A stretch of DNA of 44,186 bases from Patescibacteria group bacterium (lineage in GTDB: Bacteria; Patescibacteriota; Gracilibacteria; UM-FILTER-43-11), in NCBI GenBank assembly GCA_029260985.1, contig JAJDCE010000123.1, forward strand, positions 1-44,186, read 5' to 3'. The stretch's first letter is position 1; each line of letters opens with the position of its first letter. The notes beneath the pieces were generated by a model. The model ran no database searches and had not been told where the DNA came from. It worked only from the letters and a program-made list of their open reading frames with translations. The position numbers and the translations under genes were made by a program. Shown here one piece after another: positions 2,661-43,866 of the stretch.

Positions 2661-3746
2661 ATGAACCTATCTGAATTCGACTACCATTTACCAAAAGAGC
2701 TGATCGCTCAGACCCCACTTGAGGAGCGTGATCACTCTAAATTAATGGTGTTGAATCGAAATAACGAAACCATCAAGCACCACTCATTTTTCGACTTACC
2801 AGACCTCCTAGACCCTGACTCTGTATTGGTTTTTAACGAATCCCGGGTAATTCCTGCGCGCATTAAATTTAAATTGGGGAACGGTAATGCTGAAGTTTTA
2901 CTGATCAAACCAATCCATGATGATGTTTGGGAGTGTATGGTTCGTCCAGGGCAAAAATTTCAACCCAAAGCTGATATGCAGATCGATCCTAATTGTTCTC
3001 TGCACATCAAAAATATTACGCCACATGGGCTTCGGACGATCCAGTTTAAGTGCAATAATTTCAACGAATGGCTGAAGGTAAATGGCAAAACTCCAACCCC
3101 ACCCTATATAAAAGATTATGAAGGCGATCCCGAACGTTACCAAACGGTTTACGCCAAAACAGAAGGATCTGTCGCAGCACCCACAGCAGGTTTCCATTTC
3201 ACCGATCAGGTCTTTGAGCGCTTAAAGGCAAAAGGGATTCAAACTGAATTTGCCACCTTACACGTAGGCCTTGGCACCTTTCAATCGGTCAAAACAGACA
3301 ACATCAAAGATCACCAGATGCATAGCGAATGGTTTAGCCTGTCCGATGAGGTCGCCAATCGTCTAAACAAAGCCAAGCAGGAAGGTAAAAAAATTGTAGC
3401 TGTGGGTACTACAGCCGTCCGTGTGCTCGAATCCTGCAGCGCTGAAGATGGCGCACTAAAGCCTCAATCGGGTGAAACCAATATCTTTATTTACCCAGGA
3501 TACAAATGGAAGTTTGTCGATCAATTGATCACCAATTTTCATGTGCCAAAAAGCACACTTCTCATGTTGGTAAGTTCGCTTGCATCCCCTGTGTCATCTT
3601 CGGGTTCAACCCGGAGATCTATAGATTCCCGATCGGGGTCGGGAATGACAATGGAGGGAAGGGACTTCATCCTGAAGGCTTATGAGGAAGCCAAAAAAGA
3701 AGGCTATCGCTTCTTTAGTTTCGGTGATTCCATGCTCATCCAATAA
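2661..3746 (+). CDS. queA: S-adenosylmethionine:tRNA ribosyltransferase-isomerase (QueA), with a ~23-aa in-frame insert near the C-terminus
   Basis: 361 aa. N-terminal FDYHLPKELIAQTPLEERDHSKLMVL, mid AAPTAGFHFT, C-terminal NFHVPKSTLLMLVS...YRFFSFGDSMLI. An extra segment SPVSSSGSTRRSIDSRSGSGMTM lies between LVSSLA and the final helix. Confidence 0.9.
   Translation: MNLSEFDYHLPKELIAQTPLEERDHSKLMVLNRNNETIKHHSFFDLPDLLDPDSVLVFNESRVIPARIKFKLGNGNAEVLLIKPIHDDVWECMVRPGQKFQPKADMQIDPNCSLHIKNITPHGLRTIQFKCNNFNEWLKVNGKTPTPPYIKDYEGDPERYQTVYAKTEGSVAAPTAGFHFTDQVFERLKAKGIQTEFATLHVGLGTFQSVKTDNIKDHQMHSEWFSLSDEVANRLNKAKQEGKKIVAVGTTAVRVLESCSAEDGALKPQSGETNIFIYPGYKWKFVDQLITNFHVPKSTLLMLVSSLASPVSSSGSTRRSIDSRSGSGMTMEGRDFILKAYEEAKKEGYRFFSFGDSMLIQ
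3598..3645. repeat. Palindromic/hairpin-rich element embedded in frame in queA
   Basis: Hairpin CTTCGGG-TTCAA-CCCGGAG (3598-3616), 10-bp palindrome ATCTATAGAT (3617-3626), hairpin TTCCCGA-TCGGGG-TCGGGAA (3626-3645). Locally GC-rich relative to the rest of the gene. Confidence 0.7.
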
Positions 3747-3932
3747 TTACCGAGCTGATTCAGGACTTCCTTGGCAAAAGTTCGCTTCATCCATCATTGT
3801 TAAAAGAGCGCTTAATTGGTCTCTATCATCTGCAGCCACTTCATTTATTGAAAGACCGAGAGACCGAACACCTGCAGGGTTGTTATGGTCAAGATCAGCA
3901 AGGGGATCTAAATCTCTTTCTGGATTATTCAT
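3747..3932 (-). CDS. Small hypothetical protein (61 aa)
   Basis: ATG-initiated ORF convergent with queA. A TTGACA-17-TTTAAT promoter-like signal lies upstream on the minus strand. No recognisable family. Confidence 0.3.
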   Translation of the reverse strand: MNNPERDLDPLADLDHNNPAGVRSLGLSINEVAADDRDQLSALLTMMDEANFCQGSPESAR

Positions 3933-5600: not shown

Positions 5601-7973
5601 TTATGCCGCCTCATCTTGCCGCCTCAGATAAGATGGCAGAAACAAAGGTGCCTTAAGACCTTTAACTTTCTTTGCAATATCCAGATCAGCCAGGTTGATT
5701 TTACCGATGTATAGATCTCGAAGGTCGCCGCCTTTTTGAATAAAATCCAGTATCTCCCGATAGCCTTTAAAGTAAACAAAATCTTTCGTGAAGGCTCCAG
5801 GCTTTGAAGTGTCCGAAAGTCCACGTTTAGCTTTTAAAGCGACTTTCCAGGCCCGATCGACACTGAACCCATGCTTAATAATCTCCGCGTAAACATCCGC
5901 AAAGGAGCCGTGCAATGCAGTGTAAATCCCCACAACCGAAGACGCAGGCCAGTATTTCTTTTCAGTCTCACTCGATTCAGTCCGCTCTTGGTTATAAACC
6001 GCGAGCCCCTCTTCAGTCATCAAATAGTCCGCCAAGCCCCGTTGAAAAATCTTATAGGGCTGCTGGCTACCGTTCATAGCCGTAAATACGTGGGTTTCAA
6101 TTTCATGTGCGATGGTTCCCTTAATCCTGTCCTCAGAAAACGTAGCCCCCTCCCGGAGCATTACCGAATTTTCCTTACCGGCAATCGCATCAGAAACCAT
6201 ATCCGCTTTAATTTTTACGCTCCAGCCTTTTAGTCCGTTGTCCTCAATCGCTTGTTCAAATAACTTCTTAGCCTCTTTGGTGCTTAGAATTTTTGAAGTG
6301 CTGGGGAAGCTCTCGGGCATAGATACGATTTCCTTCACTGCCTCCCGTAAAATATGCTGATCAGGCGCTCCATATAAATGAATTGATTTTGCTGTAAAAG
6401 AATCCGAACCTCTCACTTCTAATAATTCAATTTTTCGCTTAATTTCATCAACTTTTTTACGCCACAAAATTCCAATAGGAGAATCGGGATATTCGATACG
6501 CTTGAGACGTGCATAAAGATTATTGGGGTCAAATTTCAACGCATTGTATTCAAATTGAGGATTGTAGGTCGGATCGACTAGAAACTTATTGTGCTCATCC
6601 TTTAAATTGGTTGGCTTTAAGTGATTGAGCAGTCTGATTTCACCATCAATTGCCACGATTTCATCATCAATCTTCTGTAAATCATCGGCTGAAAAATGAC
6701 GCACAATATGAGCCACGCTGGAAGAGTCTTTGCCCGCTTTTTCAGCCGCCATATGTCTGGTGGGATCAATGAGAAAATTTCTAAGATCCCGCTGGCCGAT
6801 AAGCATTTTATATTTTTTACCCCTAAAGTTTTCCGTATCAACAACAGTCTGAATACGGCTCCCCGACAGGCTGAATTTACAATAGCCATCATCTAACTTA
6901 ATTTCTTCCGCTACCGATTGATCCAAAACCGATTTTTCAATAGTAGGATCCATCTGAGCGATGATTTTCTTATTCCCTTTTTTACCAATTACCTCAATCC
7001 GTTCCAGATTTCCGATCACGGGCTTTTGAGGAGTTTTTTCCTCATCTTTATCTTCGATCTTATGACCAAAAATATCCTGCGCAATCCGAACTCCCTTTTC
7101 AGGTGTCGCCACTTTTATTCCTTCAATTCTTTCCAGTCGTTTTCGTAAGGGGGCCATATTGGCAATTTGCACCGCAAGCCCGGCACGGGCATTGATTTCC
7201 AAGAGAATTGGACCGCTTTTATCCAGAGCAATATCAATAGCCGCAAAACCCAGGTTGGTGATTTGCTGCACTCTTGAGGTGATGAGAAGAATGTCATCCC
7301 AATGAGGAATTTTCGTACCTCGTACAGGGCCATAGCCCGGAACACTATCAATTTCTTTATTGTATTGAGTCACATGGGTCATTTCCCCTTTGGCAATATC
7401 AATTCCAACCGCAACCCCTCCTAAATGCACATTGGCCTTACCTTGTGACTCCTCGGTAGGTAGACGGATCATCGCCATCACCGGAATGAGATTGTGAGCT
7501 ACAATTCGTAAATCCGGTAACCCCTTATAAGACATCTTATTAAAAGGTTCAGGCGCTTCCAGTCGCTGTTCAAAAAAAGCAAAATCAGAAATATTAGCCA
7601 GTGAATAACGGCCATCTAGAATATCCTGAACATGCCGCTGCATTGCTTCAAGGCTTACAATATCACCATTTGGGCTCACAAAATTGCGCCCTTTCCGATC
7701 AGAAATCACCAAAATCCCTTCACCTCCATAACCGGAGTTTGGCTTAACAACAAATGAGTTGGGGAGTGTGTTCCAGTCAAAACTTTTTAACTCCTTTTTG
7801 TCCTGGATAGAACCAAAGAGTTTAGCCACAGGAATTCCTCGGGCCGATAGAAAATTTTTGGTTTTCATCTTACTATCCGCCATCATAATGGCTTTTTTTG
7901 GGTTATACGCTCTGATGTATTTCAGGCTCCGGGCGTTGATCCCGAGCAGACCTGGATTATGTAAAAACCACAT
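5601..7973 (-). CDS. Fusion protein: RimK-related (alpha-L-glutamate-ligase-like) ATP-grasp domain plus a DUF1704/QEGLA-motif (MATCAP-like) metallopeptidase domain
   Basis: 790 aa. N-terminal motifs: GINARSLKYIRAYNP, FVVKPNSGYGGEGILV, MIRLPTEESQGKANVHLGG, ILLEINARAGL. C-terminal motifs: HEIETH (plus-strand 6090-6107) followed by TEEGLAVYNQ. Confidence 0.75.
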   Translation of the reverse strand: MWFLHNPGLLGINARSLKYIRAYNPKKAIMMADSKMKTKNFLSARGIPVAKLFGSIQDKKELKSFDWNTLPNSFVVKPNSGYGGEGILVISDRKGRNFVSPNGDIVSLEAMQRHVQDILDGRYSLANISDFAFFEQRLEAPEPFNKMSYKGLPDLRIVAHNLIPVMAMIRLPTEESQGKANVHLGGVAVGIDIAKGEMTHVTQYNKEIDSVPGYGPVRGTKIPHWDDILLITSRVQQITNLGFAAIDIALDKSGPILLEINARAGLAVQIANMAPLRKRLERIEGIKVATPEKGVRIAQDIFGHKIEDKDEEKTPQKPVIGNLERIEVIGKKGNKKIIAQMDPTIEKSVLDQSVAEEIKLDDGYCKFSLSGSRIQTVVDTENFRGKKYKMLIGQRDLRNFLIDPTRHMAAEKAGKDSSSVAHIVRHFSADDLQKIDDEIVAIDGEIRLLNHLKPTNLKDEHNKFLVDPTYNPQFEYNALKFDPNNLYARLKRIEYPDSPIGILWRKKVDEIKRKIELLEVRGSDSFTAKSIHLYGAPDQHILREAVKEIVSMPESFPSTSKILSTKEAKKLFEQAIEDNGLKGWSVKIKADMVSDAIAGKENSVMLREGATFSEDRIKGTIAHEIETHVFTAMNGSQQPYKIFQRGLADYLMTEEGLAVYNQERTESSETEKKYWPASSVVGIYTALHGSFADVYAEIIKHGFSVDRAWKVALKAKRGLSDTSKPGAFTKDFVYFKGYREILDFIQKGGDLRDLYIGKINLADLDIAKKVKGLKAPLFLPSYLRRQDEAA

Positions 7974-9664: not shown

Positions 9665-12211
9665 TTAGATAATTCCAAGTCGAGCTTCAATTTCCTGATC
9701 CACAAACATCTTTTTTCGTCCGTATTTCATTCGTGAATATTTCTTTAAAATCTCCGCCATTTTATCGCTTCCTTGAGGGTCCCAAATTGTCTTGAGAGAA
9801 AAGGGCCTTGAAGTGGTATTGTTTATATTCAATTTGATATAAGCGCTATAGTTGGCAATTCCCAAAATATCCTGTTGCGATAGTAAGGGGGCATATTCTT
9901 TTGCAAGATATTCCGCGTCATCCGCACCCACCTTAAAACTAAGCATGGTACCCACGTTACCAAACACCGCGTCGCGCACTCTTGTATCATCTTTACCACT
10001 CGGTGTTTTAGTCAGTTGCGCAATATACTGATGCGCCATGATGAGCGAAAGGCGGTACTTACGGGCTTCCGATAAAATTGAGGCGAAGGTATCAGTGGCA
10101 AAATTCTGAAATTCATCCACATACATATAAAAGTCTTTTCGTTCTTCTTTAGGTATCTCTTGCCGGCCCATAGCGGCCATATTCACCTTATTAACAAAAA
10201 TCAGTCCTAAAAGCTGAGCATTTACATCGCCAATTTTACCTTTCGAAAGATTCACCAGAAGAATCTTCTGATTATCCATAATGTCTCGTATATTAAAGGC
10301 GCTTTTGGGCTGACCAATAATGTTACGAATCGTGGTATTGGTGATAAACGGACCAAATTTAGAACTGAAATACGGGATCATTTCTTGTTTTTCACGCTCA
10401 CCGGTGTTGGCATATTCATGATCCCAGAACGACTTAACCACCGCGTTGCTCACTTTCTCGAGCTTATATTTGCGGAATTCATCGTCCACAAAGATTCGGG
10501 GAACATCAATGAGTGTCGCCCCTTCATCTTCATCTTCCATCAGGGTCAAACAGGCATTCCGAAAGTAATGCTGGATACGAGGCCCGAAGATTTCATCTCC
10601 AAACAATTTGATAAAGATTTCCATCGCATCTAACGAGGCCCGATCTCTCTCCTCCGGCGTATGAGCTTCCAATAAATTAAGCCCCATGGGCCGGTCAGCA
10701 TCTGACGGATCAAATACCACAATGTCTTTGGCACGCTCTTTTTGTACAATTTTAAGAGTATCTTCCACCAGGTCGCCATGCGGATCAATCAGACAGATAC
10801 CATCTCCATTCCAAATATCCTGACGAGCCATGTAACTGAGAAGAACTGACTTACCGGAACCGGATTTCCCGATAATATACTGATGCCTCGTCCGGTCATC
10901 GGCCATAATACGCACTTCCCGCTCTTCACCCCGGTAAACATTCTTCCCAATCACAACCCCTTCCTGCGGAAGGTCAGTCGGTGGCGCAAGTACTTTGTAC
11001 GCAAGCCATTTAATAATCGGCACATTGTTATACCGCGAATCCGGGAAGTGGATGACGGAGGCAAGTTCGGTTTGAGTGAACAAGTTCTGCTTATGAAGAA
11101 TTCCAGGTATTCGTTTACGGAACAGATACTTCATCAAAGGATTATTGACTCGATCCATTGGGAAAATTCGTCGCCCCTGAAAAGCGTTTAAATAAGCATC
11201 GTGATAAATGCTAAACGCTACATTCAAATTATTTGTAATTTCAACCGCCCGCTGAGTCGTGTCAGCAACCCCAAATACCCGAATAGACGTATCAAAACCT
11301 ACTTCACCGGCTTTTTCACCAATTTTTTTATAGGCCTCTTCCTTAGCCGCCAGCATACGAATATAGGCATCACCGGAGCTCGCGCCAGGCGCACTGGTTG
11401 CCCCTTTGCCGATAGGCGCCATGAATCGGATTGCATTGATCAGTAAGCCCAGGATCGGACCTATCAATGGAATAGGTATTTTAATCGGCAATCTTTCTTT
11501 TTTAAAGAGCGCTGTACCCATCCGTTCGGTTTTGCGTCTCCACTTATTATTCGCCACTGGGTTAATAATCATCTGCATACAGGCTTTCTCACCCGTTTTA
11601 AGCTTAGAAAGCACATTGGCCATGTCATTCAGCGGATCCTGCTCCATCACTTTATAAGTATGAATCGGGAACCAGAAGTCCTTTTTGGTATACATAAAAT
11701 AGCCTCGCACCTTCTTGCCCTTTTCAAACAATTCATAAGATTTATCCAGAATTTTTATATCCGCATCTTTGTAAAACGAAGTAACCTGTTTTTCCAGTAT
11801 GTTTTGATAAAATTTATCAGCGACTACATAAAAACCGAGTTCATGATTTTCCAAAAATAACTCAAATGAGATGTTATCGGCCTGCCAGATCTTGGTTTTG
11901 ATCGTATTCCACAAATTTAGCTCCCGAATTTCATATAAAGCCCTGTAAAGCTGGGCCATAATAGCCACCTTTTCCTTAAAATCCTTCTCCGTCCGCTGTT
12001 CCTGATCCATCTTGGAGTCACTCCGAGGCAGCGTCACTTTCATATAAATCAGGTTTTTAGCCGATTTATGAGAATAGATAAGCCTTGCGAGCTTAAATAA
12101 ATACTTCAAACCATACCAAGACACAAAAACGATAATAAGCGTCGTGAGTCCATGGTTTTTCAACCAATCAAGTACTAGAGGGACGTATTGTAAGTATTTT
12201 TCAAAATCCAC
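9665..12211 (-). CDS. VirD4/TraG/TraD-like (FtsK-HerA superfamily) ATPase with an N-terminal membrane anchor
   Basis: 848 aa, with a GTG start at 12211. TM helix LTTLIIVFVSWYGL. Walker A GKSGSGKS. Walker B and TraG-D_C-like segment FYMYVDEFQNFATDTFASILSEARKYRLSLIMAHQYIAQL. Confidence 0.75.
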   Translation of the reverse strand: MDFEKYLQYVPLVLDWLKNHGLTTLIIVFVSWYGLKYLFKLARLIYSHKSAKNLIYMKVTLPRSDSKMDQEQRTEKDFKEKVAIMAQLYRALYEIRELNLWNTIKTKIWQADNISFELFLENHELGFYVVADKFYQNILEKQVTSFYKDADIKILDKSYELFEKGKKVRGYFMYTKKDFWFPIHTYKVMEQDPLNDMANVLSKLKTGEKACMQMIINPVANNKWRRKTERMGTALFKKERLPIKIPIPLIGPILGLLINAIRFMAPIGKGATSAPGASSGDAYIRMLAAKEEAYKKIGEKAGEVGFDTSIRVFGVADTTQRAVEITNNLNVAFSIYHDAYLNAFQGRRIFPMDRVNNPLMKYLFRKRIPGILHKQNLFTQTELASVIHFPDSRYNNVPIIKWLAYKVLAPPTDLPQEGVVIGKNVYRGEEREVRIMADDRTRHQYIIGKSGSGKSVLLSYMARQDIWNGDGICLIDPHGDLVEDTLKIVQKERAKDIVVFDPSDADRPMGLNLLEAHTPEERDRASLDAMEIFIKLFGDEIFGPRIQHYFRNACLTLMEDEDEGATLIDVPRIFVDDEFRKYKLEKVSNAVVKSFWDHEYANTGEREKQEMIPYFSSKFGPFITNTTIRNIIGQPKSAFNIRDIMDNQKILLVNLSKGKIGDVNAQLLGLIFVNKVNMAAMGRQEIPKEERKDFYMYVDEFQNFATDTFASILSEARKYRLSLIMAHQYIAQLTKTPSGKDDTRVRDAVFGNVGTMLSFKVGADDAEYLAKEYAPLLSQQDILGIANYSAYIKLNINNTTSRPFSLKTIWDPQGSDKMAEILKKYSRMKYGRKKMFVDQEIEARLGII

Positions 12212-43797: not shown

Positions 43798-43866
43798 GGA
43801 GCGGTAGTTCATCCCGATGTAATCGGGAGCCTGCCTATCATCTCCGACAAGTCGGGACGGGTTCGA
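43798..43866 (+). pseudogene. Decayed tRNA-Asp-like fragment
   Basis: GGAGCGGTAGTTCA (43798-43811) is identical to the first 14 nt of the downstream tRNA-Asp. GCCTGCCTATCA matches GCCTGCCTGTCA, and there is a T-arm-like CGGGTTCGAG. The D-loop region is replaced by hairpin TCCCGAT-GTA-ATCGGGA (43812-43828), and there is no acceptor 3' strand. Confidence 0.7.

Follow-up and report, generated by a model that had tools for sequence, protein, structure and literature searches.

The queA gene in a 44,186-nt stretch of DNA from a member of the Patescibacteria (contig JAJDCE010000123.1 of assembly GCA_029260985.1, here called the window) carries an in-frame insert formed by two short hairpins placed head to head. 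Judged by its anatomy, this element is a member of an already described superfamily of palindromic repeats that comprises the CGTC-tagged REPs and the NTS/SRM hairpins and includes some of the Rickettsia palindromic elements (RPEs). The favoured reading, to which a probability of roughly 85% is given, is that the insert is one copy of such a non-coding dimer, which would have been inserted as DNA, translated and tolerated, and which may be spread by a nuclease or by replication and repair. The recurrent occupancy of a single codon boundary of QueA by many hairpin types appears to be new. The repeat is here described from Patescibacteria, a phylum for which neither of the two publications on the superfamily (PMC3733652 and PMC11893778) lists it.

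The queA product is well identified. It corresponds in phmmer to Thermotoga maritima QueA in the PDB (1vky, E 2.2e-94), has a precomputed match to the family PF02547 (Queuosine_synth), and its structural model resembles 1vky, 1yy3 and 1wdi in Foldseek (E 1e-29). The phmmer alignment is split, with residues 1-308 paired to 13-318 of 1vky and residues 332-360 paired to 318-346, and this clean break leaves about 23-24 residues of the window QueA without counterpart. The residues flanking them are adjacent in the solved QueA structures. An earlier first-pass annotation, made from the letters of the window, had proposed some 23 extra Ser/Gly/Arg-rich residues in frame together with two hairpins and a 10-bp palindrome in the DNA encoding them, and all of these are present.

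The coordinates of the element and of the related features are collected in Table 1. The boundaries of the insert are uncertain by 1-3 nt in either direction, and by its inverted-repeat arms the element occupies 3585-3657. Its order, with slashes at the junctions, is GCA/TCCCCTGT GTCAT CTTCGGG TTCAA CCCGGAG ATCTATAGAT TCCCGA TCGGGG TCGGGA ATGAC AATGGAG/GGA, a head-to-head dimer of two hairpins of the form (C/T)GTCAT, stem of 6-8 bp, loop of 4-6 nt and ATC. The outer inverted repeat TGTCAT/ATGACA, at 3592-3597 and 3645-3650, was absent from the first-pass annotation. The right hairpin occurs only once in the window, where 0 occurrences are expected. Folding of a 101-nt stretch gave -41.5 kcal/mol against -31.3 +/- 3.5 for shuffled sequences (z = -2.9). 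The insert is not an assembly artefact: among Logan contigs, derived from public biofilm metagenome runs, one from a separate run covers 3491-3748 with zero differences and two more cover both junctions. No tRNA was found by ARAGORN close to the insert and the exact hairpin strings had no match in the literature.

Table 1. Position of the queA element, its parts and the related genes (plain numbers, window; C numbers, other contigs of the same assembly)
Feature	Position	Strand	Description and basis
queA ORF (open reading frame)	2661..3746	+	S-adenosylmethionine:tRNA ribosyltransferase-isomerase, 361 aa with insert; phmmer, PF02547, Foldseek
In-frame insert	3585..3656	+	72 nt, 24 codons, stop-free, SPVSSSGSTRRSIDSRSGSGMTME; filled versus empty sites in relatives
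Left outer arm	3585..3592	+	TCCCCTGT, C-rich, 8 nt
Left tag	3593..3597	+	GTCAT, that is, (C/T)GTC tag plus AT as first two stem bases (nomenclature of PMC3733652)
Left hairpin	3598..3616	+	CTTCGGG-TTCAA-CCCGGAG; with tag fits the published degenerate SRM motif
Central palindrome	3617..3626	.	ATCTATAGAT, joins both hairpin units
Right hairpin	3626..3645	-	TTCCCGA-TCGGGG-TCGGGAA; minus-strand reading GTCAT-TCCCGA-CCCCGA-TCGGGA-ATC
Right tag	3645..3649	-	ATGAC, GTCAT on the minus strand
Right outer arm	3650..3657	-	AATGGAGG; final G is base 1 of the Gly codon GGA (3657-3659)
Candidate host-encoded half-site	3666..3676	+	TTCATCCTGAA, codons F-I-L-K, 8-9 nt 3' of the insert; sequence inspection, lead only
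GIY-YIG cassette	C42:6119-6542		ORF C42:6198-6506; same GTCAT hairpins on both sides
GIY-YIG cassette	C51:5320-5709		ORF C51:5389-5673; same GTCAT hairpins on both sides
GIY-YIG cassette	C103:10674-11115		ORF C103:10766-11068; same GTCAT hairpins on both sides
RAYT (REP-associated tyrosine transposase)	C59:13694-14233	-	NF047646, 90 bits

The insert has relatives throughout the genome to which the window belongs (G000, 1.53 Mb assembled, 43.6% G+C, the window being its contig C28). A search for further copies had been suggested with the first-pass annotation, and BLAST of the assembly found them at C134:5712-5769 and C106:31919-31976, with 85-86% identity to the queA copy over 59 nt, and at C32:17508-17546, with 95% identity over 40 nt and extra DNA in the middle of the copy. 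The central palindrome ATCTATAGAT recurs unchanged in the copies at C134 and C106 and marks a subfamily. The common plan of the copies is an 8-nt C-rich arm, GTCAT, a hairpin, ATC ... GAT, a second hairpin, ATGAC and an 8-nt G-rich arm. Around them lies a larger family of hairpin ends: under a strict definition (GTCAT, a perfect 6-bp stem, a loop of 4-6 nt and AT) the assembly contains 77, dispersed over many contigs, where fewer than one is expected by chance. The stems covary, the types being TCTGAA (35), CCTGAA (19), CCCGGA (8), TCCTGC (5), TCCCGA (3) and CTCCGA (2). Loops are of 4-6 nt, mostly 5, the 6-bp stem preceded by AT is closed by AT, and the tail is C(C/T)(C/T)A.

Head-to-head dimers number 24 and measure 56-126 bp, mostly 68-86 bp. 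They have terminal inverted repeats (TGTCAT/ATGACA plus the 8-nt arms), small size, multiple copies and no coding capacity, and the queA copy is the only one located within a long ORF. Across 75 ends, all the upstream information is held by positions -8 to -1 before GTCAT, with CC at -6/-5 and nothing farther out; the base at -1 is T in 35 ends and C in 25. Since conservation stops 8 nt outside GTCAT, the edge of the element in the whole family is the same as the junction in queA. In 7-8 of the 75 ends a truncated remnant, GTCAT plus half a stem, adjoins the arms, and a second small palindrome, CCTGCCTGCCGGCAGGCAGG, is found within the loops of some hairpins; both features indicate that nesting into hairpins occurs.

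A palindrome of 20 nt, CCTGCC(T)GCCGGCAGGCAGG, has 12 dispersed copies in G000, such as those at C30:18810, C117:17777, C32:17602 and C66:1193. At C32 and C66 it lies within the loop of a GTCAT hairpin, and the same core is nested in the second hairpin of the insert in the queA homologue P0005.

Boundaries were also sought in intergenic DNA: for two genomes of the same genus the flanks of 25 elements were concatenated and searched, and six orthologous regions were aligned. The same-genus genome G001 is without the element at the sites orthologous to C134 and C51:6942, and intergenic DNA within the genus is too diverged for placing the junctions at single-base level. At one orthologous position between genes, G000 has a TCTGAA/CCTGAA dimer (C139:3024-3109) where G001 has a single perfect palindrome, TGTCATTCCTGC-TTTC-GCAGGAATGACA (C29:~1860-1900, locus L063). 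It is thus one site with two members of the family, and is likened to the site in queA.

The comparison with relatives shows the queA site in both states. In a family sample of 31 species-level genomes queA was identified in 28, and in 20 of these the site is uninterrupted and reads ...SSFA-(G/N/D/S)R(D/E)F.... The other 8 are filled at exactly this boundary, in frame and without stops, by 24 aa in G000, 21 in G018, 19 in G042, 18 in G004, 17 in G016, 16 in G003, 10 in G012 and 8 in G014. Empty sites are found in close relatives: G001, the sister of G004 (G041), a genome from the genus of G003 (G019) and the nearest metagenomic homologue (P0029). An equivalent conserved loop in relatives, named beforehand as the result that would speak against a palindromic insert, is not found, G001 and P0029 being empty. 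The inserts begin with TCCTTTTGTCAT in G003, TCATTTTGTCAT in G042 and TCCAATTTGTCAT in G004 and continue with three different hairpins. That of G004 has copies with 87-92% identity elsewhere in its own genome, and the hairpin types of the other two recur as repeats across several of the family's genomes.

The same boundary stands out among the 120 closest QueA homologues in a large protein collection, 35 of which have an insert of 6-32 aa at this place, compared with at most 5 at any other position. Many of these inserts read like translated hairpins (SFCHPERSEGS, RHSELGSES, RHSHESGN...DSRLHGND, ILKQVQDD). Filled and empty sisters are paired in P0001/P0029, P0005/P0014, P0011/P0021 and G004/G041, several of them well supported. 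On a QueA tree computed without the insert at least 17 changes between the filled and the empty state are needed, against 22-34 after shuffling of the labels. The site is therefore a hot spot of insertion, a place of turnover and clean loss, or both, and the data are compatible with either.

The composition of the site was compared as well. Gly stands directly after the insert in 34 of 34 filled alleles and in 39 of 84 empty ones, as the G-richness of the right arm at its end could explain. The junction GCC/GG is present in 7 of 8 filled alleles versus 3 of 19 empty ones; a preference for a palindromic GCC/GGC target is one explanation and the right arm, G-rich where it ends, is an equally good one. 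The half-site TTCATCCTGAA shares 10 of 11 bases with the tag and 5' stem of the commonest type of repeat, GTCATCCTGAA, and the enrichment of its TTCAT in filled alleles (7 of 10 versus 7 of 22 empty ones) is only suggestive. A host hairpin AAGTTC...GGACTT around the site was considered and dropped, being present in just 3 of 10 filled alleles. QueA has a second, much weaker variable loop after residue ~260-264, with sporadic inserts in P0077, P0029, P0087 and P0064, one of which (VPEGARSRIEYGMTKG...) looks hairpin-derived.

The strongest rival explanation is a single ancient insertion followed by turnover, in which later exchange with other copies in the genome, by gene conversion or nesting, diversified the hairpins, and the site was emptied time and again through seamless excision or internal deletion. 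Several observations agree with it. All recognisable inserts have one and the same left junction (an arm of 7-8 nt and then GTCAT), some short conserved stretches (for example QPKxxDDKFV and SPSSANMT) have the look of vertically inherited inserts in decay, the C139 site of G000 and its orthologue in G001 hold different members of the family, and the half-stem remnants speak for nesting into hairpins. However, many independent clean losses would be needed, and the empty sites of P0014, P0021, G041 and P0029 are on short branches. Several empty sisters have Asn (AAT) in place of the Gly of filled alleles, unlike the outcome of seamless excision, and the inserts of G000 and G004, 87-97% identical to copies in their own genomes, point to recent copying. 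This explanation is possible and considered rather improbable.

The protein is predicted to tolerate the insert. Being 72 nt long and free of stops in the frame of queA, the insert would be translated as a loop of 24 residues, rich in Ser, Gly and Arg. In an AlphaFold model built from an alignment of 60 sequences (pTM 0.80), residues 310-330 have pLDDT below 50 and are placed between helices 297-307 and 333-346, so that the mapping proposed with the first-pass annotation yields a low-confidence loop and the insert is modelled as a disordered connector joining two helices. All 107 residues invariant in that alignment are kept in the window QueA, and activity is probably retained. That the gene is an intact-looking pseudogene, inactivated by the insert or on its way to it, would agree with the ease with which genomes of the candidate phyla radiation (CPR) lose pathways. 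This is very unlikely given the full-length ORF with its invariant residues, the location of the insert between two helices, and the inserts found at this place in about 30% of related QueA, which are intact and in some cases are conserved short loops.

Among published repeats the closest in structure are the CGTC-tagged REPs of Di Nocera, De Gregorio and Rocco (2013; PMC3733652). These carry the tag CGTC, often TGTC, have stems of 8-9 bp with A-T pairs first, loops of 4-5 nt and, after the stem, a short tail. Most occur as head-to-head dimers, many of which are heterodimers, and dimers located within genes now and then add 20-30 aa in frame. The same authors assigned to them the R. conorii elements RPE-4 and RPE-6 and the Neisseria dRS3. 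Both queA hairpins are tagged TGTC-AT, the stem of 8 bp (AT plus 6 bp) and the tail correspond, the left loop is of 5 nt and the right one, of 6 nt, is slightly beyond the published range. The repeat in G000 is likewise dispersed and mostly found as head-to-head dimers (24 dimers, 77 ends), with an in-frame dimer within a gene. Differences are the position of Patescibacteria/Peregrinibacteria outside the five phyla of that study, the A/T-richer stems that dominate in G000 (TCTGAA, CCTGAA), and the family-wide recurrent occupancy of one protein site, which is absent from PMC3733652. The likeness to Rickettsia palindromic elements noted in the first-pass annotation is borne out by this common anatomy, and kinship of the queA insert with RPE-4 and RPE-6 is supported by analogy with the CGTC REPs as described there.

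The second related system is the NTS of Neisseria, CGTCATTCCCGCGMAVGCGGGAATCYRG, described in PMC11893778 (Nat Commun 2025). NTS and the related SRM hairpins flank genes for single-domain GIY-YIG proteins (ssnA), whose products bind the hairpin as single-stranded DNA and make their cut a few bases to the 5' side of the tag; the authors liken NTS-ssnA-NTS to an insertion sequence. In G000 a copy at C23:5726, TGTCATTCCCGCGAAGGCGGGAATCTGG, agrees in 27 of 28 positions with the consensus for NTS. The two systems share single-domain GIY-YIG ORFs of about 95 residues bracketed by tagged hairpins and the co-occurrence of nuclease and repeat across genomes. They differ in that the nuclease of G000 is known from sequence alone, that most local hairpins are outside the SRM pattern, and that PMC11893778 stresses the control of transformation in Neisseria without translated intragenic copies (the word intragenic appears 0 times in its text).

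Two further systems are more distant. RPE-1 (Ogata et al. 2000, via PMC10969869) is also selfish palindromic DNA that has entered housekeeping genes of a reduced genome without breaking the frame, with an extra surface peptide that is tolerated; compared by description only, it is of ~150 bp and has a conserved peptide of its own, whereas the queA element has 72-75 nt and two REP-like hairpins. The REPIN/BIME doublets mobilised by RAYT (PMC3116915; Ton-Hoang 2012) are, like the dimers of G000, inverted doublets of tagged hairpins, non-coding and present in tens of copies per genome. The tag in G000 is GTCAT and not GTAG, and the RAYT of G000 has different flanking hairpins.

A search for inverted hairpin ends spaced farther apart than those of dimers identified three complete cassettes of 390-442 bp, each with an ORF of 95-105 aa containing a single GIY-YIG domain (Pfam E 1.7e-16). 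Two more GIY-YIG ORFs are found at contig edges with a hairpin on the available side, so that all five in G000 are hairpin-associated. The only match in the PDB is UPF0213 BH0048 (E 0.0075). The ORFs are tentatively assigned to the Ssn family on the basis of size, single GIY-YIG domain and flanking hairpins. The cassettes, of about 400 bp and with the same ends, are longer and likely full-length relatives of the queA dimer, and their product may act as a transposase.

The association extends beyond G000. Within the family, 8 of 30 GIY-YIG loci, in five genomes, are bracketed by hairpins on both sides, and in a phylum-wide sample the count is 9 of 29, with 7 others having a hairpin on one side. 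Across 401 sampled Patescibacteria genomes the hairpin pattern GTCATYCYGRAN{4,6}TYCRGRATC was found in 105 and its reversed control in 0 everywhere; the nuclease was found in 113. The latter is present in 72 of the 105 repeat-bearing genomes versus 41 of the other 296 (odds ratio 13.6, p = 5e-25, a figure that ignores phylogeny) and in 38 of the 42 genomes with at least 8 hairpin ends. Nuclease homologues sharing 59-67% identity are found in groups that include Flavobacteriia and Chloroflexota, as would be expected of a mobile gene.

Two of the three cassette ORFs themselves contain another palindrome. Those at C42 (~6400-6430) and C103 (~10970-11000) have an in-frame G+C-rich mini-palindrome of 27 nt, TGCCCGCCCGTGCCGGATCGGACGGGG, read as CPPVPDRTG. 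The C51 copy lacks this second type of palindromic insertion in frame, which is the smaller of the two. Near the end of the window (43798-43866) a decayed copy of tRNA-Asp stands beside a GIY-YIG ORF, and its D-loop is replaced by a hairpin, TCATCCCGAT-GTA-ATCGGGAG. This hairpin resembles a tagged one (TCAT plus stem) and might be the recognition hairpin of the other GIY-YIG subfamily to which this ORF belongs.

A transposase of the RAYT type would be the alternative mobiliser, as in classical REP/REPIN systems. G000 does encode a RAYT and the dimers have a REPIN-like doublet architecture. Its gene, though, is flanked by three hairpins of another kind, CAGGGT-N4-ACCCTG, found nowhere else in the assembly, and not by the GTCAT repeat; it is a solitary REPtron-like unit unrelated to the GTCAT family. 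The presence of Y1_Tnp is not correlated with the repeat (9 of 12 versus 11 of 19 genomes). PMC3733652 reports the CGTC-tagged REPs to be without dedicated transposase and no RAYT to be flanked by them. Mobilisation by RAYT in place of the GIY-YIG nuclease is therefore very improbable.

Just as little credit is given to removal of the element before or during expression, whether by intron-like excision, translational bypass or protein splicing. The RNA of the insert is predicted to fold into a stable three-way structure, which counts in its favour, but no Rfam family matched positions 3400-3850 at the E-value threshold or four loci with other copies at the gathering threshold, and the 72 nt contain no intein or intron features. 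Moreover, the frame is kept and stops are avoided in 8 of 8 filled genomes, with inserts of 24-72 nt, which is expected only under translation. An ordinary lineage-specific surface loop encoded by coincidence in palindromic DNA, to which the extra residues at this loop in many QueA homologues of the family might point, can be practically discarded, being refuted by the near-identical intergenic copies in G000, by the fit of arms, tags and hairpins to a family with 77 ends in place of the fewer than one predicted by chance, and by the lack of the loop in the closest relatives.

Under the favoured reading, the dimer would have entered queA as DNA between the conserved helix ...LMLVSS(F/L)A and the helix GRDFILKAY, and QueA would tolerate the loop of 24 Ser/Gly/Arg-rich residues linking both. 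The dimers would be a miniature, gene-less form of the ~400-bp GIY-YIG cassette, and the repeats may be spread and reshuffled by a nuclease of Ssn type or else by the host's own replication and repair acting on the hairpins.

Several results weigh against this reading. The Ssn proteins are described in PMC11893778 as nucleases of single-stranded DNA that modulate transformation and are not proven transposases, and the indirect basis of the assignment to that family and the lack of a kinship correction in the co-occurrence figure count in the same direction. The published SRM motif, HGTCWYN(0-2)YYVSBRHN(0-5)WNVSBRGN(0-2)RNCYNB, has 9 matches in G000 versus 7.2 in shuffled sequences and is thus not enriched. 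It fits the left hairpin of queA and the NTS-like copies at C23 and C59, and neither the right hairpin nor the TCTGAA and CCTGAA types; most local hairpins are missed because the dominant stems are A/T-richer. A contig with the empty site was searched for in three metagenome runs and none was seen, so that no polymorphism of filled and empty alleles was detected there. At the queA junctions of G000, G003, G004, G042, P0005 and P0011 there is no direct repeat of the kind left by target-site duplication, nor was a conserved target motif found outside the element, the family having no information content past position -9. The last two results, taken together, fit single-strand, structure-directed events better than classical cut-and-paste transposition.

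A bolder proposal, speculative and held to be unlikely, is that the SRM/CGTC-REP dimers are actively mobile in Patescibacteria through GIY-YIG proteins of Ssn type. Their insertion sites would lie in single-stranded DNA, either within SRM hairpins or at a constant spacing of ~8 nt from an SRM-like tag, and no target duplication would result. The conserved codons for D-F-I-L-K in QueA (GAC TTC ATC CTG AAR) would mimic GTCAT CCTGAA and make a hot spot of the Ala/Gly boundary located 8-9 nt upstream.

One claim of the first-pass annotation did not hold. The TCCCGA core of the right hairpin had been linked to tRNA-derived fragments at the window edges; this hexamer occurs 32 times in the window, where 18 +/- 4.5 are expected, and at the window start it lies within the variable arm of an ordinary tRNA. 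Apart from the repeats, the window encodes at 755-1444 a ribosomal protein L25/Ctc with a long C-terminal tail rich in Glu, Gly, Ala and Lys (...EEEEGAAEGEEGAEGEEG...).

The in-frame hairpin insertions in housekeeping genes of CPR/Patescibacteria have so far passed for a curiosity lacking any description. They can thus be tied to a named and partly characterised system, that of the CGTC REPs, equated here with the NTS/SRM hairpins, and the Ssn nucleases. The QueA loop, filled in about 30% of the homologues from Peregrinibacteria and empty in sister taxa, is a natural experiment on the choice of target, on clean loss and on how a protein absorbs such an insertion. The pattern of bracketing and co-occurrence with a small nuclease in very small genomes makes the question of mobilisation testable. 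If the proposal of active mobility were true, the long-orphaned CGTC REPs and some of the RPEs would gain a dedicated enzyme and a target rule.

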